Positions 1 through 11,052 of a DNA stretch of 11,052 nucleotides are shown piece by piece. The notes under the pieces are model-generated. The model was given only the letters and a program-made list of their open reading frames with translations, was not told where the DNA came from and did not search any database. A program made the translations under genes and the position numbers. The stretch lies in IMG/VR virus record IMGVR_UViG_2667528155_000009; one strand, 5' to 3'. The DNA is from a virus. Its lineage: Duplodnaviria; Heunggongvirae; Uroviricota; Caudoviricetes. Position 1 is the first letter of the stretch; every line of letters begins with the position of its first letter.

Positions 1-57
1 ACCACCGCCTGCCGCTTCTTCGATCCGCGCCTGGCGTCGTCGATCACCATGCGTGGT
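1..57. other. GC-rich fragment of unknown origin, separated from the AT-rich phage sequence by an ambiguity-rich junction (N's at 58-86)
   Basis: About 65% GC against about 30% GC in the adjoining 100-900 region; ten scattered N's between 58 and 86; all three plus-strand frames are open, so no product can be assigned. Confidence 0.3.
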
Positions 58-86
58 NATNAGNTCACTGNGNCANANANACTTNN

Positions 87-879
87 TCCTGCAAAAGAAA
101 GTATCGCGTGTGTCATACTTCATGGCAAATCCAAAACCGACTTTTATGATGGATAACGTATGTATACTAAATGCAACATATGAAATGCAGCCAATAAGAA
201 ATAATGGGACGAAAACTGACATTAAATAGTTATTATCATCATCAGTTGGCGTTACTTTCCTTTTCTTTACTTTTGAGGGCATCAATATTAAACAAATAAT
301 GCAAACAAGGTAAATGATGCAATACAATATAAAAATAAAAAGTAATGCTACAACTGCCGTCATGAGTTTATTGAATGTAGCATCAAATGGAATGTCAAAC
401 AAATTGGAAATTAGCGAGCGTGCAATATAATATGAAATTAATGATACAATTACCCACACATATTTAATTCCCAGGTTAATTTTTATGGCTATGTTTTTTT
501 CTTCATTATCGAACGATTTTATGTGAGATGATATTGTGTATGTAATACACAATATCGTCACAAAAGCCAATGTATATGGAATGATGGTATTTATATAACC
601 AATAACGTTAAAGGAAACAATTGTTAATAAAAACAGAAATACCGACAACAGTGCGGCATCTTGCGTTTTTTTATAATTTTTTCGAAGGCGAACGGCCTGT
701 TGACTGGATGACTTTTTATTCCAATTATTTTGTACGATTAATCCGCTGAGAATAATCATACCAAACCAAATAAGAATGGGGTATACAGGATCACTCTGAG
801 GTATGATGACGAGCACTGCCATAAAAAACAATAAACTGTGAACAATCCCGAGGTGTAAGGAAGAGTATATACTTTTCAT
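87..879 (-). CDS. AT-rich polytopic membrane protein of unknown function, at least 265 aa, C-terminal end lost in the N junction; moron-like cargo gene
   Basis: ATG at complement 877-879 with AAGG about 7 nt upstream and an in-frame upstream stop at 907-909. I scanned the frame by hand and found no stop down to the N's. Translation MKSIYSSLHLGIVHSLLFFMAVLVII... contains about 7 hydrophobic helix-length segments with K/R-rich loops. Not in the supplied ORF track because no stop codon is reached. Confidence 0.5.
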
Positions 880-990
880 CGATGACCTTTTTAATAATGG
901 GTTATTCTATTGGAATTAGAAAAACCACCAGCAGGCCATTACTGTCAAGCCCGGACGCTGTCTGTTTTATCCGTAGCACACGTACATAAA

Positions 991-1016
991 CGCGCCATCC
1001 GAACCACGATGGCGCG
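991..1016 (-). terminator. Candidate intrinsic terminator for the minus-strand early operon
   Basis: Perfect 9-bp GC-rich stem CGCGCCATC/GATGGCGCG with an 8-nt loop; on the minus-strand transcript it is followed by UUUAUGU. Sits 11 nt downstream of the stop of the 56-aa gene. Confidence 0.4.
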
Positions 1017-1026
1017 ACAGTACATC

Positions 1027-1197
1027 TTACAGTTGGTCAGACTTTCCTTCAGGGCGTATCAGCTCGTCCCGTGATTCAGGCGTTATTACAATCTGATGAC
1101 TCAGCAATGGCACGACCACGAACTCACCAGAACTGAGTACGTATACAAGATATCTGCCAGGAACTTTCAACATTCTCAACAGTTCATCTGTATTCAT
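1027..1197 (-). CDS. Hypothetical small protein (56 aa, MNTDELLRMLKVPGRY...)
   Basis: ATG at complement 1195-1197 preceded by GGAG with a 7-nt spacer. The supplied ORF extends to a TTG at 1260, but that longer form has no comparable RBS. Confidence 0.45.
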   Translation of the reverse strand: MNTDELLRMLKVPGRYLVYVLSSGEFVVVPLLSHQIVITPESRDELIRPEGKSDQL

Positions 1198-1323
1198 ATT
1201 TTTGCTCCGTTGGTTAACAGATTCCCTTTCGGGAGCATTCCCTTTCATCCCTGTGCACAATCTTTTTAAAACAGTGCCGGTACGCGCATACAGGTTTGTT
1301 AGAATGTCTGTTAATAGAGCAAA

Positions 1324-1530
1324 TCAGATATCACTCTCCCCAAGGCTCCTGCATTCAAAGTTCTCCAGTTTCACATGTTCACCGGCAGTACGGCCCGCCT
1401 CTTTAGGCTTATAAAAACGCATTTCGCACTGTTTCTGGGTCAGTCTGGTTTCGGAGTAAAATGACCAGGCCACAGGCGGATTGCCTGCTTTATGGATAGT
1501 TGCTGTAATTTTGTATTTTTTCCCTTTCAT
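1324..1530 (-). CDS. Hypothetical small protein (68 aa)
   Basis: Open frame filling the gap between flanking minus-strand genes; weak RBS (AGTAAGT); conserved element B lies 35-80 nt upstream. Uncertain. Confidence 0.25.
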   Translation of the reverse strand: MKGKKYKITATIHKAGNPPVAWSFYSETRLTQKQCEMRFYKPKEAGRTAGEHVKLENFECRSLGESDI

Positions 1531-1560
1531 ACTTACTGCCGAAAAATGTGTTGATTATTT

Positions 1561-1607
1561 ACACAGATTCGTATCACAAGCAGCCAGGAGTATCCAAGCA
1601 GGATATG
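1561..1607. repeat. Conserved intergenic element, copy B (ACACAG..ATTCGTATCACA..GCAGGATATG)
   Basis: Shares ACACAG, ATTCGTATCACA and GCAGGATATG blocks in the same order with copy A at 6661-6709; the copies differ by indels. Confidence 0.6.
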
Positions 1608-1645
1608 AAGGTAACCCAGTATGTTACCTTCACTGTCTGATATCA

Positions 1646-2386
1646 TCATTCGGTACTAAGCCCCTGCCACAACGCCCTGTTACCAGGTTTATGCACTTGC
1701 CGGGAAATCTCACGGCACTTTTTCAGACGTTTCAGTTTTGCTTCCGTCCTGCGAATTTCAGCGCTGATCGCCCGTGGTGTAGGGATGACAACGTCGTCGT
1801 GCCGCCGTTCTGTGAATGACGGTATCGACTGAATAAGGTCTGCAACGTTATCTGTTGAGGCTTCAGCAGCAGTTACTGATGCCGCTAACTTTATTGCTTC
1901 AGGTTGCGGCGCAGGATTATCGTCGCGCCCCATGGCTGAACAGGCTTTCTGTTTCTCCGGTAAACCATCATCAGGCAGACTGTAACGAAACTTGCCATCA
2001 TGATTAATCCGCAAAAGACGCCCCTTTCCCGTAGCCATCGCCAGCGTGGAGGCAACCTTCCTGGCTGTTGTGCTGAAGCGCCTGGACAGTTCATCCGCCG
2101 TCTGTGGGCCGTGTTTTCGGATAGCGTCTGTCAGCTGCTTCTCATCGATTTTCATAACCGTTTCCACTGGTGTTACAGGGTTCACTATTTTTTCTTTGGC
2201 AACGTCAGTCAGTTCCTTTTCCGGTCCGGACAGAGACCAGTAGCCGTTCAGGAATATCACCCTGCCTGAGTCTTCCTGCTCACGCAGCATTTCCAGAACA
2301 TCTTTTGTCTCGATGAGCAGGCGTGCTGCGACCTCGCGAGCAGTGGCTTTTCCCATCGCTTTCAGTGCATCAGTCACTGTTTCCAT
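1646..2386 (-). CDS. Hypothetical phage protein with two tandem winged-helix-like segments (246 aa)
   Basis: Start moved from the ORF-track TTG/ATG at 2461 to the ATG at complement 2384-2386 (METVTDAL...), which has AGGAGA 8 nt upstream and no longer overlaps the DnaC-like gene. Two similar segments (ATAREVAARLL...GRV and QTADELSRRF...GRLLRINHDGKF) look like wHTH DNA-binding domains; this is inference from sequence pattern only. Confidence 0.6.
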   Translation of the reverse strand: METVTDALKAMGKATAREVAARLLIETKDVLEMLREQEDSGRVIFLNGYWSLSGPEKELTDVAKEKIVNPVTPVETVMKIDEKQLTDAIRKHGPQTADELSRRFSTTARKVASTLAMATGKGRLLRINHDGKFRYSLPDDGLPEKQKACSAMGRDDNPAPQPEAIKLAASVTAAEASTDNVADLIQSIPSFTERRHDDVVIPTPRAISAEIRRTEAKLKRLKKCREISRQVHKPGNRALWQGLSTE

Positions 2387-2409
2387 TGACAATTTCTCCT
2401 GTGATTCAG

Positions 2410-3150
2410 TCAGGGCCGGTTGACGTTTTTTCGCCAGCTTTCCCAGCCAAAATTTACCCATCGGCCACCGTTCATGGACATTCTGTCCATCACCCGCTGA
2501 CCTGCCAGCTTAGTCAGTGCATCATGGTTCAGGTTGGTCAGCATTCCGACGCTGCGCAGGGATGCGGTCCGGCGATCAACAATCTGGTGCAGGATGACCT
2601 GCTCGTTGCGTGTCTCACGCTGCACACCAACCTCATCAAGGATCAGCAGGTCCACTCCGCACAGCTCCTTCAAAAATTTTTCACCCGAATTTCCATCATC
2701 GTACCCGGCATGAAGCGCACTCATCACGTCGGCGACGGTGATAACAATCACACTGCGTCCGGCGTTCATCAGGCGGTTACCTATGGCGGCGGCCAGATGA
2801 TTTTTGCCGGTACCAGGCTTACCGCTGAACACAAAATTTGTACAACCGGTATCCAGTTCAGCAGCTATGGATTTGGCCTGGCTGAGCGCATGCTTCTGGC
2901 CGTCATTCTGCACCCGGTAATTCTTGAACGAGCATCTGCGATGCAGTGGCTGAATACCGGCCCGACCGAAGATTTTTTCGGCCCTGGTCTGGCGGTTAAG
3001 TCGGTCAATTTCCTCGCAGCGTCTGCGCCCTTCGGCTAGCTGCCATTCCCGCCACTCCCCCGGCGTCCGGAACGGTGCGGAACTGTTGGCCGACCGTGGC
3101 GCCAGTTTCCTGATGCGGGCCAGAATCCCGGTATCTGCGATGTTTCTCAT
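2410..3150 (-). CDS. DnaC-like replicative helicase loader (IstB-like AAA+ ATPase)
   Basis: Walker A GKPGTGKNHLAAAIG, Walker B DLLILDEVG, and downstream QIVDRR...GMLTNLN...LAGQRVMDRM closely parallel E. coli DnaC as I recall it. ATG at complement 3148-3150 with GGGGGTG 7 nt upstream; sits 6 nt downstream of the O-like gene stop. Confidence 0.9.
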   Translation of the reverse strand: MRNIADTGILARIRKLAPRSANSSAPFRTPGEWREWQLAEGRRRCEEIDRLNRQTRAEKIFGRAGIQPLHRRCSFKNYRVQNDGQKHALSQAKSIAAELDTGCTNFVFSGKPGTGKNHLAAAIGNRLMNAGRSVIVITVADVMSALHAGYDDGNSGEKFLKELCGVDLLILDEVGVQRETRNEQVILHQIVDRRTASLRSVGMLTNLNHDALTKLAGQRVMDRMSMNGGRWVNFGWESWRKNVNRP

Positions 3151-3156
3151 GGCTTG

Positions 3157-4074
3157 TCACCCCCTGAAACCCGGTGGAATGGTTGTGTCCGGTGGCGAAA
3201 TATCCTGAATCCTGGTCGGGCTGTCGCGGCCACGATTGCCTCCCCGGTCCTGGTCTTTTGCCAGCCAGCCGGTGATAAATTTCCTGATGCCTCGGGCGGT
3301 TTTTCGTCGTCGTCGTTCGCTGAGCAGCCATCCGCGCTGATTACGCAGTGCCTGCCGGACGTCGACCGCCGGATACAGCGTCTCAAACTCGACAACCATC
3401 GATTCGGTCACGGAAAATTCAGAACCGTCGTTGAGCGGAAGCCGAATAAACTCAGGGTCATCAGGCGGTGTTGATGGCACACCAGCGCTCAGAGGCCGAC
3501 GCTCAGGTCCGACATGGGCTGGTCCGGTACCATCGGGCAAACTCGCACCCTGTGACCCGAAATTTTCATCCAGTTGCGTGGGGCTGATTTTTTCAGCTCC
3601 GCGCAAGAGGTTTTGATCTTTTAGATCTGTTTCTTTATCTTTATCTGGATCTTTATTAGTTGCCTTTGTGTTGGGCTCCTGTTCAAACACAGAACCAACA
3701 CCTGTTGAACATGTGTTATTTTCGCTGGCAGATTGTGCTTCCTTCCTGTTCCTTCTTGACTGAACAGATGCTTTTCCTGCTGCAGACTTTTTCGCTAAGG
3801 TTTCCCTGACCGAATGAAGATCATCTTCAATACGCTTGTGAACCCACTCCGTGCCGTTATCAGTAAAAAATTCTCTCAACGACTCTTCTACGGCTCCCCA
3901 ACGCTCACTGCTAACCCGGGCAATCTTTGCCAGCCTGTTTTTCGGTATAGCCCTTCCGGTCTGCCAGTAATTGAACATCAGCAGTAAATAGGCCCCATGC
4001 TCCTCGGTTGAAAGATGCATTGTGTCAGCCAAGTAATCAGCGATATAAAGCTGCATGTATGGAAGTGCCGCCAT
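3157..4074 (-). CDS. DUF1376/YdaU-like phage replication protein with a long low-complexity linker and a C-terminal domain
   Basis: N-terminus MAALPYMQLYIADYLADTMHLSTEEHGAYLLLMFNYWQTG matches the YdaU/DUF1376 pattern from memory; position immediately upstream of the DnaC-like gene is typical of an O-like initiator. GAGG 4 nt upstream of the ATG. Confidence 0.7.
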   Translation of the reverse strand: MAALPYMQLYIADYLADTMHLSTEEHGAYLLLMFNYWQTGRAIPKNRLAKIARVSSERWGAVEESLREFFTDNGTEWVHKRIEDDLHSVRETLAKKSAAGKASVQSRRNRKEAQSASENNTCSTGVGSVFEQEPNTKATNKDPDKDKETDLKDQNLLRGAEKISPTQLDENFGSQGASLPDGTGPAHVGPERRPLSAGVPSTPPDDPEFIRLPLNDGSEFSVTESMVVEFETLYPAVDVRQALRNQRGWLLSERRRRKTARGIRKFITGWLAKDQDRGGNRGRDSPTRIQDISPPDTTIPPGFRG

Positions 4075-4124
4075 AACGCCTCGCTACGCTCTTTTCCGTT
4101 CGGTCTGAATACAAAAATTAATAC

Positions 4125-4141
4125 TCACTGGTCATGTCTCT
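4125..4141 (-). repeat. Boundary motif copy 2 (minus-strand reading AGAGACATGACCAGTGA)
   Basis: Identical 17-mer to 4714-4730; one mismatch to the plus-strand copy at 7842-7859. Confidence 0.7.
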
Positions 4142-4152
4142 CTGTTTGGTGC

Positions 4153-4212
4153 CGAACCTCCTGCTGGTGCTAGCCTGCTGATTCCCCAACCAACAGAACC
4201 ACAGGAGGTTCG
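4153..4212 (+). promoter_or_regulatory. Long-range stem sequestering the ribosome-binding site of the 70-aa gene
   Basis: CGAACCTCCTG at 4153-4163 is the perfect reverse complement of CAGGAGGTTCG at 4202-4212, which contains the GGAGG Shine-Dalgarno 6 nt before the ATG at 4215. Pairing can extend to within 2 nt of the start codon. Confidence 0.4.
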
Positions 4213-4214
4213 AC

Positions 4215-4427
4215 ATGTCAGATACAAAACTTAAAAATGGATTAACGCCTGAACAAATGGCACACGATATCGCTATGGTGCTCATCGGGAACCCATCCCA
4301 TGAATGGCTTTCGGATAATGCGACCAAAACTCGTAGCACTGAATTAGCAATGAGCGCTGTAGCAGAAGAAGTCATGAACATGGAAAAACATCTTGCTGCA
4401 GCTCTTCATCAGTACACGGAGAACTAA
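4215..4427 (+). CDS. Hypothetical small protein (70 aa), encoded antisense to the surrounding early operon
   Basis: Strong RBS (GGAGG, 6-nt spacer), ATG start, intrinsic terminator immediately downstream, and protein-like composition. The overlapping minus-strand ORF 4118-4381 has no RBS and an odd composition. Confidence 0.6.
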   Translation: MSDTKLKNGLTPEQMAHDIAMVLIGNPSHEWLSDNATKTRSTELAMSAVAEEVMNMEKHLAAALHQYTEN

Positions 4428-4438
4428 TCCGCATCAAA

Positions 4439-4463
4439 GGTCGCTGAGTTCGCGACCTTTTTT
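4439..4463 (+). terminator. Intrinsic terminator downstream of the 70-aa gene
   Basis: Stem GGTCGC/GCGACC with a 6-7 nt loop, followed by TTTTTT at 4458-4463. Confidence 0.5.
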
Positions 4464-4684
4464 CAGTCCACTCCAGTAGGCATCCCCAACCATTTTTTTA
4501 TATCGCTATAACTCAGCGTTATGGGCTGATTTTTGCCGGACTCTTCAACCGGTATGGTATGTTCCTCTTCAAATTTCTTTTCGAAGGTACGCATGTGCTC
4601 ACGCCAGGCATTTCGATCTTCGATCGCTTCTTCCCTCCGGTTCAGTCTGGCGTAATACCGTTCCTGCTCAGTCAACGTTTTCAT
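4463..4684 (-). CDS. Hypothetical small protein (73 aa, MKTLTEQERYYARLNRRE...)
   Basis: ATG at complement 4682-4684 with AGGAG and a 5-nt spacer; charged helical composition. The ORF-track extension to 4717 overlaps the upstream gene and lacks an RBS. Confidence 0.5.
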   Translation of the reverse strand: MKTLTEQERYYARLNRREEAIEDRNAWREHMRTFEKKFEEEHTIPVEESGKNQPITLSYSDIKKWLGMPTGVD

Positions 4685-4700
4685 TACTTCTCCTGCATGG

Positions 4701-5204
4701 TTACAACAGATGGTCACTGGTCATGTCTCTGATACTGCTGGCGGTAACTGCTTCGTAGCGTCTGTATTGCTTGTATGGCTTCATCACACTCCCGTTCAAA
4801 ATCCGTAACAGGCGCACCAAGAAGTACCGCATTTGCCACTGCGGTTTTTTTAAAAACTGTGTAAGCAGATACTCGATGCTATGCCCTGCCGTGACCTGCT
4901 TATGCAGCTCCGGCGCGTGTATCCGGATTGCTTCAAGAACTGCGGGGATTAGCGCTGAAAACTTTTCGCGGTGCTCTGTCGTTTCGAGTTTTCGCCATCG
5001 CTGAAAAATGTTTATACGATTCCGGCGCCATGCTTCGTAATCCACCGTTCCGTCATCACGTTCTATACGGTGGACAGCAATATCTGGTCTCACTTGCTGT
5101 TCCAGAAAGGCGCGGGTGATCAACTGTGTTGCACTTTCCTGACTCATTGCGGGTGTAGCCAGCCAGGATGACAGTGCTTTGTTGGCATCCTCAGGGGTGA
5201 TCAT
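4701..5204 (-). CDS. YdaT-like protein (167 aa), occupying the cII-equivalent position
   Basis: Immediately downstream of the Cro-like gene; segments LITRAFLEQ and SALIPAVLEAI resemble Rac YdaT as I recall it. GAGGTG 7 nt upstream of the ATG; the start overlaps the end of the Cro-like gene (translational coupling). Confidence 0.55.
   Translation of the reverse strand: MITPEDANKALSSWLATPAMSQESATQLITRAFLEQQVRPDIAVHRIERDDGTVDYEAWRRNRINIFQRWRKLETTEHREKFSALIPAVLEAIRIHAPELHKQVTAGHSIEYLLTQFLKKPQWQMRYFLVRLLRILNGSVMKPYKQYRRYEAVTASSIRDMTSDHLL
4714..4730 (-). repeat. Boundary motif copy 1 (encodes the YdaT-like C-terminus RDMTSDHLL)
   Basis: Plus-strand TCACTGGTCATGTCTCT; identical 17-mer at 4125-4141. 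Confidence 0.7.
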
Positions 5205-5466
5205 CGTTGTTCACCTCTCTCGCATCCTTTAGTGGTAGATTTTGATGGCTAGGCAAAGCATCCGTTGGATTAGGGTAAAGAACTGAGTCGAGCTGATGCG
5301 GTGTAACTGCATACCCTACGGCCTCACAAAAAGGAATAATTCGTCGCGGTGGGAATTTTCCTGTTGTAACCCATAGACTTACGTTTTGCTGACTAGTTTT
5401 AAGACGTCGGGCGATCTCGGTCTGATTAGTGATGCCGAATAGTCGGCTCCTGGTTTTAAATTCCAT
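5191..5466 (-). CDS. Cro-like / YdaS-family HTH regulator (91 aa from the ATG at 5466)
   Basis: HTH segment ITNQTEIARRLKTSQQNVSLWV; C-terminal IIPFCEAVGYAVTPHQL resembles the YdaS pattern. GGAGG 4 nt upstream of the ATG at complement 5464-5466; the ORF-track start at 5484 is a GTG. Divergent from the repressor gene. Confidence 0.7.
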   Translation of the reverse strand: MEFKTRSRLFGITNQTEIARRLKTSQQNVSLWVTTGKFPPRRIIPFCEAVGYAVTPHQLDSVLYPNPTDALPSHQNLPLKDAREVNNDDHP

Positions 5467-5484
5467 ATATCCTCCAAATGTCAC

Positions 5485-5565
5485 ACTTGTATAAATACAG
5501 CATGAACTTGTATTTTACAAATTTAAATTTGTGTGACGCTAACAAAATTTACTTGTAAAATATGA
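5485..5565. promoter_or_regulatory. Immunity switch region: three operator-like dyads with divergent PR-like and PRM-like promoters
   Basis: Dyads ACTTGTATAAATACA (5485-5499), ACTTGTATTTTACAA (5506-5520) and ACTTGTAAAATATGA (5551-5565), core TTGTA-N3-TACAA. Minus-strand promoter TTGTAA (5515-5520) N17 TATTTA (5492-5497) faces the Cro-like gene. Plus-strand promoter TGTGAC (5532-5537) N18 TAAAAT (5556-5561) faces the repressor. Confidence 0.5.
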
Positions 5566-5568
5566 GGT

Positions 5569-6003
5569 ATGAAAAAAAACAACGAATCAGCTCAATACGA
5601 GACTTCAGCCAGAAGGATCAAACAGGTCCTGTATGAATTAGGCTGGAACCAAAGTCGCCTGGCTAAAGAAATTGGGGTTTCAGCTCAGGCGGTACAACAA
5701 TGGGCAAAAGGTACTTCTCGACCGAATGGCCCTAATCTAACTCGACTTTCTGAAGTCACAAGCAAACCTGAAGCATGGTTTTTCAGTGATGTCAGCGGGT
5801 TATCTGAGAGTCATGCAGTACATTTACCAGAAAGTAATGGTTCAGACTTTCTCCCGCTTAGCGATGAAGAGATCAGACTGCTAACTGTCTTCAGGAAATT
5901 TCCTTCTGTAGAGAGTAAAAACATGCTGTTAGCGTTTGAGATGAGACTTCAGGAGATAAAAGAATACTATTCCAAATACGCTAATCCCAATAAAAACCGA
6001 TAG
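5569..6003 (+). CDS. DicA/RacR-like prophage repressor (HTH_XRE, 144 aa, no S24 peptidase domain)
   Basis: HTH NQSRLAKEIGVSAQAVQQWAKG; C-terminal LSDEEIRLLTVFRKFPSVESKNMLLAFEMRLQEIKEY parallels DicA as I recall it. Divergent from the Cro-like gene across the operator region. Confidence 0.8.
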   Translation: MKKNNESAQYETSARRIKQVLYELGWNQSRLAKEIGVSAQAVQQWAKGTSRPNGPNLTRLSEVTSKPEAWFFSDVSGLSESHAVHLPESNGSDFLPLSDEEIRLLTVFRKFPSVESKNMLLAFEMRLQEIKEYYSKYANPNKNR

Positions 6004-6029
6004 TCTCCTTCTTTCCTCCCCCAACAATC

Positions 6030-6056
6030 ACAAGCCTGCTTGAAATGCAGGCTTGT
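6030..6056 (+). other. Perfect 10-bp hairpin just after the repressor stop (ACAAGCCTGC-ttgaaat-GCAGGCTTGT), no U-tract
   Basis: Direct reading; shares its GCCTGC/GCAGGC stem core with hairpins at 7401-7415 and 7768-7785. Confidence 0.5.
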
Positions 6057-6128
6057 TACACCTCGCATAATAAAACACTTAAATTTCATACAATTAAAAA
6101 TTTTTAGTGATTTTCTCACTTTAAACAC

Positions 6129-6157
6129 TTGTATTTATCAAATCCATTTTGTAGATT
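6129..6157 (+). promoter_or_regulatory. PL-like promoter with overlapping operator-like site
   Basis: TTGTAT (6129-6134) N17 TAGATT (6152-6157); the -35 is embedded in AACACTTGTATTTATCAA, which repeats the ACTTGTA operator core. A second operator-like copy, ACACTTAAATTTCA, lies near 6073-6090. Confidence 0.35.
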
Positions 6158-6239
6158 GATTGTACAAATCCTCTAGCAACACATGCGCGACAGGTAAACG
6201 TTCCGCCGACGGGCGTAAAACAAAGATGAGGACGACAGA

Positions 6240-6428
6240 GTGGACAAGACTGAACTGAAACACATTATCGCCCTGCTCCTGGAAGATGCAAAACGTCTTC
6301 AGCAGGTTGAACCAAATGCAGGCACTGAGGCCCGCATATGGTTGGCTAATAAAACACTTAATTCATTCAGAGAGTTAAGCGGTTTTGCAAGAGGGTCAGG
6401 TATCTCTACCGAACACCAACTTTCTTAG
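6240..6428 (+). CDS. Hypothetical small protein (62 aa, GTG start)
   Basis: GAGG 8 nt upstream of the GTG; first ORF downstream of the PL-like promoter. Overlaps the convergent minus-strand zinc-ribbon ORF by 23 nt. Uncertain. Confidence 0.3.
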   Translation: MDKTELKHIIALLLEDAKRLQQVEPNAGTEARIWLANKTLNSFRELSGFARGSGISTEHQLS

Positions 6429-6594
6429 CTAGCGCCTCCATAATAATAGAATGTCGTTCGCTAAGAATGCCGATTGCCGCCCCGCAAAGTGCACACTGAA
6501 CGAAGTGAATAATGTGACTGCAATTTTTCACTGAGGAATTGGTTTTTAACTCAAAAGAAGTTGATGGGCATTTTGGACAGGTTGTTACAGCCAT
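6406..6594 (-). CDS. Small zinc-ribbon-like protein (62 aa; CPKC ... CALC)
   Basis: Very good RBS (GGAGGG, 6-nt spacer, ATG at complement 6592-6594); Cys pairs CxxC and CxxC about 25 residues apart; conserved element A lies upstream on the minus strand. Confidence 0.45.
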   Translation of the reverse strand: MAVTTCPKCPSTSFELKTNSSVKNCSHIIHFVQCALCGAAIGILSERHSIIMEALAKKVGVR

Positions 6595-6660
6595 ATTTTA
6601 CCCTCCACGGGGTCGATGTTGGTGGAGTTCCCGACGGACGAGGTCGGGAATGTGCGCCGG

Positions 6661-6709
6661 ACACAGGTATAAATCCGGCATACGAAATTCGTATCACATG
6701 CAGGATATG
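6661..6709. repeat. Conserved intergenic element, copy A; contains the perfect 15-bp palindrome ATACGAAATTCGTAT (6680-6694)
   Basis: Same ordered blocks as copy B at 1561-1607. The palindrome is formed only in copy A. Confidence 0.6.
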
Positions 6710-6728
6710 TATTTAAACACGAGCACAT

Positions 6729-6803
6729 AACCGAAAACGCACTACGCAGAACCTTCCTTGTCGGGTCTGTCGTTAAATTTACTGCGATAGTGCGTTTCCG
6801 GTT
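6729..6803. repeat. Long imperfect inverted repeat (about 21-bp arms, about 32-nt spacer)
   Basis: AACCGAAAACGCACTACGCAG (6729-6749) against the reverse complement of CTGCGATAGTGCGTTTCCGGTT (6782-6803); one mismatch and one bulge. Confidence 0.55.
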
Positions 6804-6824
6804 ATGAGTGAAAATCATAACAGT

Positions 6825-6887
6825 GCTGTGTGTAGTCTTTGACGGTATCCGTTAACAAAGTTTTCCTGGCTGATACCGTCCTTTTTC
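6825..6887 (+). ncRNA. Candidate DicF-family sRNA with intrinsic terminator
   Basis: TTTGACGGTATCCGTT is close to the DicF core TTTGGCGGTATCAGTT as I recall it (14/16). Stem GACGGTATC (6841-6849) / GATACCGTC (6872-6880) is followed by CTTTTTC. Lies in the PL-like operon downstream of a DicA-like repressor, the position where dicF sits in Qin. Confidence 0.4.
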
Positions 6888-7071
6888 AGAATGAATTTTA
6901 TAGTGTGGTGAATGCGGCTCAGCGCACGTGACACAGTTAAAAACATGTCAGTCCTTCATCTGTTGATGGGTGGGAATGTTCGTCGGCAGTAATGGTTAGC
7001 TGTTTACTGTCACCGGGAGGCACCCGGCACCACACTCCAAAATTCATTGTGTTACCAGAATGGAGACAACT

Positions 7072-7362
7072 ATGCCAGTTACACCTGAAATAAAACAAAA
7101 CTCAGACTGGATGCGGCGCAACAAATCTGAACAAACCGCCCCTGCCTGTAAGCCTGGTATTATTCAGAAAATATTAAGTACGCTGAACCAGAAAGGTGAC
7201 CCCACCCTTATTCCTTGCGCTTATTGTGGCAAAGCCATCAACAAAAGTGAAATCGTGGAGCATGAACTTATTTATATAAACGGAAGTCAGCTCGCAAGAA
7301 AAACGAATCTATATTGCAGTAAACGATGTGCCGAATATGACCAGATGGCACATGAATCTTAA
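7072..7362 (+). CDS. Zinc-ribbon-like hypothetical protein (96 aa; CAYCGK ... CSKRC)
   Basis: GGAG 5 nt upstream of the second ATG at 7072; the ORF-track start at 7060 lacks an RBS. Confidence 0.55.
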   Translation: MPVTPEIKQNSDWMRRNKSEQTAPACKPGIIQKILSTLNQKGDPTLIPCAYCGKAINKSEIVEHELIYINGSQLARKTNLYCSKRCAEYDQMAHES

Positions 7363-7400
7363 TAGCTGAAAGTTTAACACTGCATTAACCCTGAAACTAT

Positions 7401-7415
7401 GCCTGCAATGGCAGG
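7401..7415 (+). other. Intercistronic hairpin GCCTGC-aatg-GCAGG
   Basis: Same stem core as the hairpins at 6030-6056 and 7768-7785; lies between the 96-aa and 110-aa genes. Confidence 0.4.
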
Positions 7416-7445
7416 ATATCACTCACCCTGAAAAGAGAATATAAA

Positions 7446-7778
7446 ATGAGAAAGACACCGAGCGAATCAGTAATTAATGAACTCAACAAACGAGCAAAGG
7501 AAATTCTTGAACTGTGTGAGAAAAACGATATTCCGGTTGTTTTTTGTTACTCATTCGAATTAAGCCGGAATGAAAATGGATATTTAAACAACAAATCCAT
7601 TACAGCTTATATCAATAAAGAGAAAGGAGCATGGGATTCAACAATAGCCGCAGCCAGCATGATCCTGCGGATGAAAGAGGTTCCTGAGATAGCTATCCAT
7701 GCAATGGCTGAAATGGCTGCGATTTGTGACATCACACGGACTGCATCCGGTACTTCAGATGAAAAAAGCCTGCACTAA
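7446..7778 (+). CDS. Hypothetical protein (110 aa)
   Basis: ATG with an A/G-rich upstream region (AAGAGA); protein-like composition; in the PL-like operon. Confidence 0.5.
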   Translation: MRKTPSESVINELNKRAKEILELCEKNDIPVVFCYSFELSRNENGYLNNKSITAYINKEKGAWDSTIAAASMILRMKEVPEIAIHAMAEMAAICDITRTASGTSDEKSLH

Positions 7779-7790
7779 GGCAGGCATTTT
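7768..7790 (+). terminator. Candidate intrinsic terminator overlapping the 110-aa gene stop, upstream of the RecE-like gene
   Basis: Stem GCCTGC (7768-7773) / GCAGGC (7780-7785) with loop ACTAAG, then ATTTT; a second T-run follows at 7796-7800. Confidence 0.4.
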
Positions 7791-7841
7791 CCCGGTTTTT
7801 ACATCCCGGCGATGCTGAGGTGGGCGACCAAACCCACCGAC

Positions 7842-7859
7842 AGAGACATGACCAATGAG
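7842..7859 (+). repeat. Boundary motif copy 3 (AGAGACATGACCAATGAG), 56 nt upstream of the RecE-like start
   Basis: One mismatch to the minus-strand copies at 4125-4141 and 4714-4730; shares the upstream ACCAAAC with copy 2. Confidence 0.7.
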
Positions 7860-7914
7860 CACCAGAGGTGATCACCGATCGCCTCATTCTAAACAGAAGT
7901 GAGGTTAAAAAACA

Positions 7915-10900
7915 ATGAGTGATAAGAAAGAAGATTTCGCGCTGTACTGCCCTGTTAAAAATGAAGAGGCCAGGAAACGACTTGGAATAAAAGCAGGCTT
8001 TTTCTGGGCAACTGCAAAAAAATTATCTGTGGCTGTTTCCCGCTGTATTGCTGCTATGGACGATAAGGGGTATGACGAGGATGACTTTAAAAAACCTGTT
8101 CGCGTCAATTACCCCGTCGTTAACGACCTGCCTCCTGAAGGCGTGTTTGATACTGAATTCTGCAACCGTTACGAAAAAGGCGGTCAGGGTGGTATCACAA
8201 TGGTACTTATCCCCGGCGCTGTTCCCGCCGATCCAATGCACGGCGAAGTCGGCAGGGATATTACTGGCAGCGGCAACGCAGACGCAGACGCAGACGCAGG
8301 CACAGACGCAGATAATGCTACGGACAATACCGAAAGTACGCTCCTCCCCGCTTACGCTTATAACGTCAACGGCGAACTGATGTCGGAAGTGGAAAAGGAA
8401 ATGTCGCAGCCTGTTTCAGGACTAAGTCTGCCACTTCGTTTCCTGGCGCAATTTAATAACGACTGTCCACAACATCAGGTCACACCAGAGCGTTTACGGG
8501 AGTTAAACCTTACAGAGCAGGATCCCGACAGTCGTACCGGAACTATTTTACTCGCCATCCAGAACAGAAAGGAACAGCTCGAAAAACTGGACACAAAAAA
8601 CCTGCATCCTTTGGCGACGTACATTGAAAAAGTATTTCCCTGCGGAAAACGACCACAACTCAATGATGTCATTAATTTTATCGATGCCGTACTTAATACA
8701 GACTATGTCGATCGCGGACTGCTCGTTAAGGAATGGTGCGAAGGTCGTCGAGCCGCGTGCGTAGAGCATGTAACAGCACCAGAAACCAGGCGTGATAATA
8801 CTGTGTCAGCGCAGACGGAAACGAAGACTACTGTCACTGAACGTCCGCGTCGTAGCGAAAAAACAACGCACCGGACGATTAATTATGAAATTGGCTGTGG
8901 CTTATATGACGGCGAGCTGGATCTTCATAACCTGAGGGAACCGCTGGATTTTGCGAAACGCATTATGGCGAAAGACCGGGAAGACTGGAAAGTATGGTCA
9001 GACACAATCAACTGCATCCCTGGCATCCTGAATTATGACCGCCAGACCATTATCGAGATGGTACGAAAAGCCCCCACCCCGACTTATCACAGTGCTGCAC
9101 TGCGCCGCGAGTGGTGTGATTCTTATCTGCGAGCCTGGGGACGGCTCGATCCCGACTGGAGCCAGAGCGCCGCTGTCAAAACAGCAGAGTCACATGAAGA
9201 TGTCTGTGCTGATATCAGGAAGGCCGGAAAGCGCCTGCGTGAAATTGAATCAGGAGTTGGGATCAATGAAGAAAAACAGACGACACAGGGAGAACTGGCA
9301 GATGAACCGTCAGCGCCTGAATCAGTGGAACCGGCTTCAGCTGAACATCAGCAGAATACGCAGCCGCTGGATGCTGAGGCATCTGTAAACACCACTAAAA
9401 CGGAATTCGATGTATTTGCTCTAATGCAGAACTCATCTGTTTATGGCAGCAAAAACACACAGGAGACGACCAGCAATGTGCAGGTTCAGGACGCTGAAAA
9501 GGATGAAAAACAGGCTGGTACTGAAGTTCAGTCAGGCGAAAGCAGTCTGGGAACTGGTGAAGAGTCAGATACCAGACAGCAAGCCGATGTAAACCAGAAT
9601 ACGGATTCTGTCGCCCAAAATAGCGATTCTGTAAACCAAACTGAACCAGTTTTGGCACAAACCGAGCCAGAAGTGCAATCTGACGAACCGGCTGTTGTTT
9701 ACCCCGCTTACTTCGAACCAGGCCGCTATGAGGGTCTGCCGAACGAGGTTTATCACGCAGCCAACGGTATCAGCTCGACAATGGTAAAAGATGCGCGGGT
9801 GAGCCTGATGTACTTCAATGCGCGCCACGTAGAGAAAACCATTATCAAAGAACGCTCTCCTGTACTGGATATCGGTAACCTGGTGCATGCACTGGCGTTG
9901 CAGCCAGATCAACTCGATGAAGAATTCAGCATTGAACCCGTAATTCCGGAAGGTGCATTTACCACCACGGCAACGATCCGCGCGTTTATTGATGAGCACA
10001 ACGCCAGCCTGACAGCGATGCTGTCAGCCGACGACATCAAAGCACTGTTAGAAGAGTACAACGCCACCCTTCCTGCTCAGGTTCAGTTAGGTGGTTCCGT
10101 GGAGGAAACTGGCCAGAGCTATATGTCGCTGCCAGAAGAGTTCCAGCGTCTCGAAGCGGACAAGAAGCAGACCGCAGCGGCAATGAAAGCCTGCATCAAG
10201 GAATACAACACCACACTGCCTGCACAAGTGAAAATCAGCGGTAGCCGTGATGCGTTACTCGAGCAGTTAGCAATCATCAATCCTGACCTGGTGGCGCAGG
10301 AAGCGCAGAAGCCCGCGCAGTTGAAAGTGTCCGGCACCAAAGCGGATCTGATTCAGGCCGTGAAGTCTGTTAATCCTGATGCCATCTTCGCCGACGAACT
10401 GCTGGATGCGTGGCGCGAAAATACGCAAGGGAAAGTGCTGGTCACCCGCCAGCAACTGAGCACTGCACTGAGCATTCAGAAAGCCCTGCTCGAGCACCCT
10501 ACAGCGGGCAAGCTACTGACACACCCGAGCCGCGCCGTTGAGGTGAGCTACTTCGGTTTTGACGACGAAACCGGTCTGGAAGTCCGCGTTCGTCCCGACC
10601 TTGAGATCGATCTTGACGGGGTGCGCATCGGCGCCGACCTGAAAACCATCAGCATGTGGAACATTAAACAGGAAGGTCTGCGCGCCAAACTGCACCGCGA
10701 AATCATCGACCGTGACTACCACCTGAGTGCTGCCATGTATTGCGAGACCGCAGCGCTTGACCAGTTCTTCTGGATTTTCGTCAACAAAGACGAGAACTAC
10801 CACTGGATCGCCATCATCGAGGCATCCGCCGAACTTCTGGAACTGGGCATGCTGGAGTACCGCAAGGCAATGCGCGCCATCGCTACCGGCTTTGACACTG

Positions 10901-10977
10901 GCGAGTGGCCAGCGCCGATCACCTCCGGTAACTCCGATGAAATAGCCGACTACACCGACGAACTGAACGATTTCGAC
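7915..10977 (+). CDS. recE: RecE-like exodeoxyribonuclease VIII, 1021 codons with no stop; 3' end replaced by the chimeric junction
   Basis: C-terminal PD-(D/E)XK-like block RVRPDLEIDLDGVRIGADLKTIS; position at the distal end of the PL-like operon of a Rac-like immunity region; GAGG 10 nt upstream of the ATG. The reading frame runs into N's and 16S sequence after codon 1021 (DFD). Family call is from recall, not a search. Confidence 0.7.
8275..8310 (+). repeat. In-frame tandem hexanucleotide repeat (GACGCA-like, 6 units) encoding a D/A-rich low-complexity tract
   Basis: AACGCA GACGCA GACGCA GACGCA GGCACA GACGCA, translating to NADADADAGTDA. Confidence 0.7.
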
Positions 10978-11052
10978 NCNTGCCATCNGANGNGCCCAGA
11001 TGGGATTAGCTAGTAGGTGGGGTAACGGCTCACCTAGGCGACGATCCCTAGC
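10978..11052 (+). rRNA. 16S rRNA gene fragment (about 75 nt, enterobacterial, corresponding to roughly positions 220-290 of E. coli 16S); not native to this locus
   Basis: TGCCATCNGANGNGCCCAGATGGGATTAGCTAGTAGGTGGGGTAACGGCTCACCTAGGCGACGATCCCTAGC matches the conserved 16S region as I recall it. Abrupt junction with N's at 10978, 10980, 10988, 10991 and 10993, inside what would otherwise be the RecE-like coding frame. Confidence 0.8.

Follow-up and report, generated by a model that had tools for sequence, protein, structure and literature searches.

A predicted seven-helix orphan membrane protein encoded by an AT-rich mobile cassette of enterobacterial prophages, plasmids and chromosomes

The window analysed here is a stretch of 11,052 nucleotides of Caudoviricetes DNA (IMG/VR virus record IMGVR_UViG_2667528155_000009) from a lambdoid prophage that also occurs in draft assemblies of Escherichia coli. 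Near its left end, between positions 879 and 88 on the minus strand, lies an AT-rich gene whose product is predicted to cross the inner membrane seven times and to end in a conserved C-terminal domain. Comparison with related loci identifies this gene as a mobile single-gene cassette, and its product as the founding member of a small orphan family. The gene occupies a variable slot of the prophage, after the replication module and a terminator-like hairpin, and before the genes that lead to the Q-type antiterminator.

The open frame and its missing 3′ end

The frame comprises 264 unambiguous codons (codons 1-264 of 346), read from window position 879 to 88; its start codon, an ATG at 879-877, follows a Shine-Dalgarno-like AAAGG (890-886), and the first N's fall in codon 265. 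Its G+C fraction is 0.324 (87-879), against 0.489 in the remaining phage DNA (1017-11052). A preliminary description of the window, made from its letters alone, had proposed an AT-rich segment in a backbone of about 50% G+C and a long membrane-protein frame, without stating its strand; both proposals hold, the strand being minus. At the composition of this gene the probability of a stop is 0.069 per codon, which leads to a probability of about 6e-9 that 264 codons remain free of stops, and none of 20,000 shuffled sequences stayed open. Thus, the long open frame is not the result of chance. Moreover, the pairwise ratios of nonsynonymous to synonymous substitution rates (dN/dS) lie between 0.1 and 0.45 in both halves of the gene, the transmembrane (TM) part and the C-terminal domain, indicating that the gene is under purifying selection. 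The codons present in the window span all seven TM helices and the first 20 or so residues of the C-terminal domain, including an invariant cysteine, Cys262.

The 3′ end of the gene is absent solely through a chimeric assembly join to polB, the chromosomal gene for DNA polymerase II, which is unrelated to the prophage. Positions 1-57 (plus strand) are identical at 57 of 57 nucleotides to a segment within polB that is present in 3,975 complete E. coli genomes, and the junction that follows (58-87) contains ten N's, at 58, 61, 64, 71, 73, 76, 78, 80, 85 and 86. A three-way comparison of window, polB and prophage reveals a switch of source at about 64/65 among the readable bases of the junction, which agree with polB up to about 63 and with the prophage gene from about 65 on; from position 87 onward the match to the prophage is 14 of 14. 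The N's were also considered as a clean consensus of two reads, an explanation that was rejected because only eight of the ten fall where polB and the prophage differ, and because of the source switch at about 64/65.

The same prophage is found in six E. coli draft assemblies (blastn, window 65-10867, 99.4% identity; loci L001-L006), in which the gene is complete and reads on past the junction of the window. Since six independent assemblies show it so, the AT-rich gene is truly contiguous with the phage. The preliminary description had feared a chimera, and this concern proved justified for the artificial polB join at 58-86, not for the AT-rich segment itself. It had also warned that the gene was incomplete, its 3′ end being lost among the N's, and that the frame might be interrupted once these were resolved. 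The first statement is borne out, taking into account that about 81 codons, encoding nearly the entire conserved C-terminal domain, are absent from the window. The second is contradicted by the complete gene, whose recovery had been recommended and which the six drafts supplied: full-length copies are intact, with products of 345 or 346 residues.

These two lengths correspond to two E. coli alleles (P0001, 345 residues, 49 contigs; P0085, 346 residues, 27 contigs), which differ by a 3-nt indel (Asp-Asp versus Asp-Asp-Asp) at about window positions 226-234, codons 213-215, in the predicted cytoplasmic loop between helices 6 and 7. The fragment in the window matches residues 1-264 of P0001 with 100% query coverage (E 4e-161), and its allele is the 346-residue form, as its agreement with P0085 at the Asp-Asp-Asp indel and throughout the compared segment shows.

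With respect to its distribution, the prophage has been seen on dozens of E. coli draft contigs, and its lineage is rare or missing in finished genomes. A megablast search of the gene with both flanks found no match in 5,426 complete E. coli genomes or in 50,697 phage records, the flanks themselves (window 880-1560 on the DUF1187 side; L003 11060-11900 on the DUF1367 side) being unmatched in the complete genomes, and a tblastn search of the window fragment against the same phage records was likewise negative.

A small orphan family and its predicted structure

When 1.84 billion representative proteins were searched exhaustively with an HMMER profile, only 33 clusters were returned. Those that are full-length have about 310-390 residues and a common architecture, and every source labels them as hypothetical proteins. 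All named members belong to the Enterobacterales, namely to Escherichia, Salmonella, Citrobacter, Kluyvera, Enterobacter, Kosakonia, Cedecea, Jejubacter, Shimwellia, Pantoea/Mixta, Serratia, Brenneria, Affinibrenneria, Pectobacterium and Symbiopectobacterium. Searching the literature with six family-member accessions retrieved no paper that mentions them. As judged from these profile searches, this is an orphan family of small size, with the window's protein as its founding member and with all named members in the Enterobacterales.

The preliminary description could not recognise a family, in agreement with the lack of a match in Pfam, NCBIfam, PHROGs, PADLOC and the PDB. When the protein was scanned against Pfam-A and NCBIfam, no score exceeded a curated cut-off, the best being those of DUF898 (7-9 bits; cut-off 28) and PRK02251 (12.5 bits; cut-off 120), and no family recurred across the 33 members. 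A profile search of PDB sequences gave chance matches to helical membrane proteins only (E ≥ 0.07). The same description had envisaged that homology might place the gene in a well-known housekeeping family, and nothing of the kind was found in Pfam or NCBIfam; it had also offered superinfection exclusion, abortive infection, O-antigen modification and transport as possible labels, and the known families behind these labels are excluded by the sequence searches. Thus, at the level of sequence the protein is not a member of any known superinfection exclusion (Sie), abortive infection (Abi), Gtr, acyltransferase or PADLOC family.

The family can be recognised by a C-terminal pattern, [DE]-[ST]-x-x-x-F-x-C … Y-R … R-L-x-C … P-x-Y, which contains two invariant cysteines and whose invariant residues are kept at pairwise identities as low as 14%. 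The window fragment extends to the first of these cysteines only; full-length copies of this prophage supply the rest of the domain.

A confident AlphaFold model was obtained from the alignment of the 33 sequences, with a predicted local distance difference test score (pLDDT) of 81.5 and a predicted template modelling score (pTM) of 0.72; an earlier model, built from 17 close homologues, was discarded as too poor for use (pLDDT 48.6). In the former, about 245 residues with seven long helices (residues 10-25, 32-57, 66-96, 100-123, 130-161, 172-199 and 211-238) are followed by an interfacial helix (240-255) and by a C-terminal domain of about 100 residues, in which beta strands lying between residues 260 and 313 precede a closing long helix (317-340). 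This domain is the best conserved part of the family. Hydropathy also gives seven helices, matching the count of about seven TM segments in the preliminary description, whose general view of the gene as polytopic membrane-protein cargo of foreign composition is supported by the frame, its G+C content and the predicted helices.

Averaged over the 33 sequences, the net charge of loop 2-3 is +6.2, that of loop 6-7 is +3.2 and that of the N-terminus is +1.9, while loops 1-2, 3-4 and 5-6 are about neutral or negative. According to the positive-inside rule, these charges point to a cytoplasmic N-terminus and a periplasmic C-terminal domain. The family has exactly two invariant cysteine columns (C262 and C302), both in this domain, which would probably be stabilised by a periplasmic disulfide between them. 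The other invariant or near-invariant positions are R286, F260, Y266, Y285, R299, L300, P307 and D162, the last of which, Asp162, lies in the predicted periplasmic loop between TM5 and TM6. Given the predicted orientation, the conserved surface formed by the C-terminal domain and the TM5-TM6 loop would face the periplasm, suggesting that the active face of the protein is the periplasmic one. Foldseek comparisons of the model identified no fold relative, either in the PDB (best E 0.19, TM-scores below 0.25) or among the viral models of BFVD (best E 0.34); local similarities of the C-terminal domain to domains of AMPK, Sub1 and Ivy (E > 0.5) were dismissed as noise.

A mobile cassette, its cargo slot and its transcription

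Nucleotide comparisons between loci show that the gene moves as a cassette of a single gene, AT-rich and about 1.13-1.26 kb long. Between E. coli and Citrobacter braakii, whose proteins share 76% amino acid identity, nucleotide homology begins 35 nt upstream of the ATG and extends no further than about 50 nt beyond the stop codon, and the Citrobacter and Salmonella copies are 96% identical over 1,264 nt only, from 178 nt upstream to 48 nt downstream of the gene. In seven contexts the G+C fraction of the gene remains between 0.30 and 0.36, while that of its flanks ranges from 0.35 to 0.57. In the Citrobacter prophage the gene is located downstream of Q (Pfam Phage_antitermQ, E 1e-52) and convergent with it, at another of the classical sites for cargo, so that lambdoid prophages carry the cassette at two different sites and in both orientations.

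Beyond prophages, the family is found on 40 plasmids in all, including an ehx virulence plasmid and plasmids of incompatibility group F (IncF), where it lies just past parM/parR. In an integrative and conjugative element (ICE), a homologue adjoins a VirB type IV secretion system; in Shimwellia, it is placed at the end of a prophage; and chromosomal homologues have been located next to ychF (Jejubacter), bcsG (Affinibrenneria) and exbD (Pantoea), with a further one in Kosakonia flanked by GNAT and AraC genes.

Some details of these sites can be added. The IncF homologue (L028 5415-8011; also L029 and L031) is 34% identical, intact and 340 residues long, and directly follows parM/parR on IncFIA/FIC/FII plasmids of E. 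coli and Salmonella, several PLSDB records leaving it unannotated; beyond it come a hypothetical gene of 334-364 codons on the other strand and a RelE/ParE toxin-antitoxin pair. The Salmonella homologue (L035 10001-19221, Kentucky/Mbandaka chromosome) is found after yfgG-yfgH-yfgI, in a variable island that also harbours DUF8209/DUF1493 genes, IS110, a PD-Lambda-2 B and C pair and an antitoxin gene of the Phd/YefM family. Many Salmonella entries are partial at contig ends, indicating that short-read assemblies often break inside this AT-rich gene.

In several loci the ends of the cassette coincide with a border repeat of about 45-60 nt, which includes the sequence …TCCGCTCCTCGCTCAAAGCrGACTGTCAGATTTGAT…. 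Its core (…TCGCTCAAAGCAGACTGTCAGATTTGAT…) follows the stop codon of the E. coli prophage gene at a distance of 35 nt and matches at 18 of 18 nt (L003 11072-11091). In Citrobacter the distance from the stop codon is 41 nt (28 of 29 nt), and the opposite side of the gene bears an inverted partner of 44 nt with 77% complementarity; in Kluyvera the repeat is present on both sides. Copies were mapped at L012 7797-7840, 9068-9111 and 14019-14038, at L015 1570-1589 and 2937-2956, and at L026 7883-7902. The window itself does not contain the repeat, its 3′ end being cut and its 5′ flank replaced; around more distant homologues the repeat was not found, and Rfam had no match to it.

The same sequence is annotated in GenBank AJ512680.1 as the right inverted repeat of the Z-region of P2-EC46, whose left and right inverted repeats flank two open reading frames (ORFs) described as putative lysogenic conversion genes. 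We take this entry to be the record of Nilsson et al. 2004, in which (Mol Biol Evol 21:1) site-specific recombination at the repeats was reportedly put forward as a hypothesis. Copies were counted in 57 phage records, which with few exceptions are P2-like, and on at least about 105 IMG/VR contigs, in each case between a variable and a conserved flank. A sample of 120 viral loci bearing the repeat, most of which have the size of P2-like ones, included no member of the membrane-protein family. The P2 Z-region cassettes resemble the E. coli and Citrobacter copies described here in being AT-rich cargo ORFs bordered by the same repeat core, whereas the carriers of the membrane gene are lambdoid prophages and chromosomal islands, not P2. 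Nilsson et al. 2004 is also cited by Rousset et al. (PMC9122126), with reference to a P2 locus whose variable content includes anti-phage genes.

In the prophage of the window, the gene fills a variable slot between the replication module and DUF1367-ybcO-Q. The rightward order in full contigs is cro-like, YdaT, DUF1376 (O-like), DnaC-like, DUF1627, DUF1187, a 56-residue ORF, the hairpin and the membrane gene, followed on the same strand by DUF1367, YbcO, the Q-type antiterminator and the lysis genes. The preliminary description had advised looking at this position in related phages, and other cargo was found there: IetA/IetS in vB_EcoS-683R6 (PADLOC, E 9e-143 and 1e-298), a cII-like gene with a beta-like protein (PD-Lambda-2_C, E 1e-41), hok/mok and IS1 in Rac-SA53, and dinI in Gifsy-2 (slot coordinates L033 1194-4587, L032 1161-4440 and L034 3791-4918). 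Gene content thus identifies the position upstream of DUF1367 as a cargo hotspot of Rac/Gifsy-like phages. The IetAS, gop-beta-cII or PD-Lambda-2-like and hok/mok systems share with the membrane gene this location, directly upstream of DUF1367(irsA)-ybcO-Q; they differ from it in being cytoplasmic multi-gene systems or small toxins made of unrelated proteins, whereas the membrane gene encodes a single large membrane protein that matches nothing in PADLOC.

Regarding transcription, the promoter and terminator calls reported here derive from consensus scans, not from transcript mapping. The hairpin (991-1016, minus strand) folds at -25.7 kcal/mol (z = -3.65) and consists, on the strand of the gene, of a GC-rich stem of 9 bp that encloses a loop of 8 nt and precedes UUUAUGU. 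It lies 11 nt past the last ORF of the replication module, the 56-residue ORF (1197-1027), upstream of the membrane gene, and corresponds in position to lambda tR2. The preliminary description regarded it as the terminator that closes the replication operon; the hairpin is real, but the operon continues past it to Q. Since Q is encoded downstream on the same strand, early-right transcription must cross both the hairpin and the membrane gene. Neither a promoter-like site between the hairpin and the ATG nor a terminator-like site between the membrane gene and DUF1367 was detected. A lone TTGACA at 948-943 was considered as a promoter and rejected, no acceptable -10 element being present 16-18 nt downstream.

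In contrast, about 130 nt of upstream sequence are conserved in eight of the 11 loci aligned, and in them an extended -10-like TGTTATAAA precedes the ATG by about 55 nt. A promoter-like element with an extended -10, TTCCT…TCTGTTATAAAAA, lies at L012 7870-7960, and equivalents exist in L007, L008, L013, L014, L015, L024 and L027. In the window, only the 5′ leader of the cassette has been retained (880-914, minus strand, AATAGAATAAC...AAAGG), as defined by blastn of the E. coli L003 against the Citrobacter L012 locus and by the 11-locus alignment. Homology to the other family loci ends at 914, 35 nt before the ATG, and the conserved region beyond it has been replaced by phage sequence carrying the TTGACA. 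The alignment thus shows that the gene has lost its native, promoter-like upstream region in this prophage, where it would be a passenger of the early-right operon and not the separate transcription unit previously supposed. It would probably be transcribed together with the delayed-early genes, by read-through of the hairpin, mainly on induction and not constitutively in the lysogen.

The gene had also been said to bear the signature of a moron. Its foreign composition and variable slot conform to this view, but here it has neither a promoter nor a terminator of its own. With the nin-region and Q-S morons of lambdoid phages it shares a foreign G+C content (32% versus 49%), a variable slot and dispensability for phage functions, and the Citrobacter copy is self-contained, with its own promoter-like region, and antisense to the phage genes. 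The promoter part of the Hendrix/Juhala definition of a moron applies to the Citrobacter and Salmonella copies, as far as consensus scans indicate. The copy in the window differs from such morons by having no promoter-like site or terminator and by lying inside the early-right operon, upstream of Q, and the cassette differs from them in occurring outside phages as well.

Proposed function and alternatives

The gene is an uncharacterised member of a familiar kind, the accessory cargo of mobile elements, with an unusual predicted fold for which no match was found. By analogy with known systems, its most likely role, with a probability of roughly 35-40%, would be exclusion or defence acting at the level of the envelope against incoming phage or other mobile DNA. 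The protein would protect the carrier cell by blocking genome entry at the inner membrane or, alternatively, it would sense the entry of DNA and collapse the membrane. A more specific proposal, which is tentative and somewhat less probable, is that it represents a new kind of single-gene exclusion or defence, in which a disulfide-bonded periplasmic domain would intercept the DNA-delivery machinery of phages or conjugative elements, or would sense it and then depolarise the membrane. Such a system would be spread, on cassettes with the border repeats known from the cargo hotspot of the P2 Z-region, among lambdoid prophages, IncF plasmids, ICEs and defence islands.

P22 SieA, T4 Imm and F TraS or SXT Eex offer the closest functional parallel, each being a single polytopic inner-membrane protein that is encoded on a mobile element and is sufficient alone. 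The likeness is functional only, as searches of PHROGs and Pfam gave no sequence similarity to them. SieA of P22 has about 162 residues, three TM helices and a conserved motif on the cytoplasmic side, and proteins of the SieA type are characterised by about 160-200 residues, three or four TM helices and the cytoplasmic motif FxRYPxEAxxFNK (PMC10883804). This motif is absent from the orphan protein and from the consensus of its alignment, and the protein differs from SieA in having 345 residues, seven TM helices and a conserved domain on the predicted periplasmic side. The genomic settings also speak for such a role: related phages have defence or toxin-antitoxin cargo in the same slot, and homologues are present on IncF plasmids and an ICE. 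PD-Lambda-2 B and C (E 4e-180 and 1e-157) were identified at 6-8 kb from the Salmonella copy, with a Phd/YefM-family antitoxin gene and IS110 also nearby; beside the Serratia copy, genes for ThsB-like TIR (Toll/interleukin-1 receptor) proteins occur together with those for a caspase, a subtilase and type I restriction-modification.

Several observations weigh against a role in exclusion or defence. The association of the family with defence genes is suggestive but anecdotal, and four solitary chromosomal homologues lie among ordinary genes, without defence neighbours. The libraries searched gave no evidence by homology for any function: PADLOC-DB 2.0.0 (2023 library) returned no defence family for P0001 or for any of the 33 members, and PHROGs v4, which includes SieA, RexB, Imm and Fun(Z), gave chance-level matches only, each in a single member. 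Known Sie and entry exclusion (Eex) proteins are far smaller than a protein of 345 residues and seven TM helices. Both the topology and the disulfide, on which the proposed mechanism depends, are predictions. The periplasmic domain is the most conserved part of the protein, whereas contact with fast-evolving phage proteins would favour its diversification. Finally, expression in a lysogen of the window's prophage is doubtful because the promoter is missing.

If the exclusion or defence role were true, the protein would constitute a structurally new single-protein system, acting from the periplasmic face of the inner membrane, and the repeat-bordered cargo cassettes first seen in P2-like phages would circulate by means of lambdoid prophages, plasmids and chromosomal islands. 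Independently of any function, the analysis defines a compact orphan family (33 clusters, in Enterobacterales so far, with no known fold) and corrects the transcription-unit model for this prophage.

The main alternative, which is less probable, is a lysogenic conversion or host-fitness gene, whose product would modify or transport an envelope component such as lipopolysaccharide, peptidoglycan, a lipid or a small solute, using as working parts the polar TM5 residues Lys139 and Arg154 together with the periplasmic domain. The strong conservation of this domain and of the TM5-TM6 loop suits a conserved host substrate, several solitary chromosomal homologues adjoin envelope or transport genes such as bcsG, exbD with a TonB receptor, and major facilitator superfamily transporters, and AJ512680.1 names the P2 Z-region cargo a putative lysogenic conversion protein. 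However, Pfam and NCBIfam reveal no similarity to transporters, acyltransferases, glycosyltransferases, PAP2 or other enzyme families, and no solved fold resembles the model; moreover, the invariant residues include no obvious catalytic triad, and homologues are not adjoined by conserved partner genes of the GtrA/GtrB type.

It is considerably less likely that the protein is an orphan immunity protein, protecting its host from competitors armed with a membrane-acting toxin (a pore-forming bacteriocin, or an effector of contact-dependent inhibition, Rhs or type VI secretion systems). Immunity proteins to pore-forming colicins are likewise polytopic inner-membrane proteins, the distribution of the family is patchy and strain-specific, and in Serratia the copy follows, at a distance of 2 kb, an Rhs toxin locus that has small ORFs downstream. 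No other context contains a conserved adjoining toxin gene, though, and a protein of 345 residues with a structured periplasmic domain is far above the size of the known immunities to pore-formers and matches no Pfam immunity family.

Less likely still is a gene of the phage cycle that belongs to the delayed-early (nin-region) operon and serves to anchor replication, to time lysis, or to block re-adsorption or superinfection during the lytic cycle. Since the membrane gene shares its orientation with the replication genes and Q, and lacks both its own promoter and a following terminator, its expression with the delayed-early genes is to be expected. Such a role is at odds with the Citrobacter prophage, where the cassette is convergent with the phage genes and downstream of Q, with the homologues on plasmids, on an ICE and on plain chromosome without phage genes, and with the related phages that lack the gene and hold other cargo in the slot.

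That the gene is a non-functional remnant or an assembly artefact, as could be thought from the truncated window copy joined to unrelated DNA, its missing native promoter and the many partial Salmonella entries, is highly improbable and largely refuted by the existence of intact full-length copies, both in E. coli (at least 76 contigs) and in many further genera, by the dN/dS values of 0.1-0.45, by the persistence of invariant residues down to 14% pairwise identity, and by the location of the partial entries at contig ends.

The right end of the window is chimeric too. N's at 10978, 10980, 10988, 10991 and 10993 are followed by 59 bases identical to 16S ribosomal RNA (10994-11052), and this join cuts a recE-like ORF (7915-11013) whose product is 1,038 residues long when intact, in the reference contigs. 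The record is therefore flagged as chimeric at both ends, which matters to users of the assembly.

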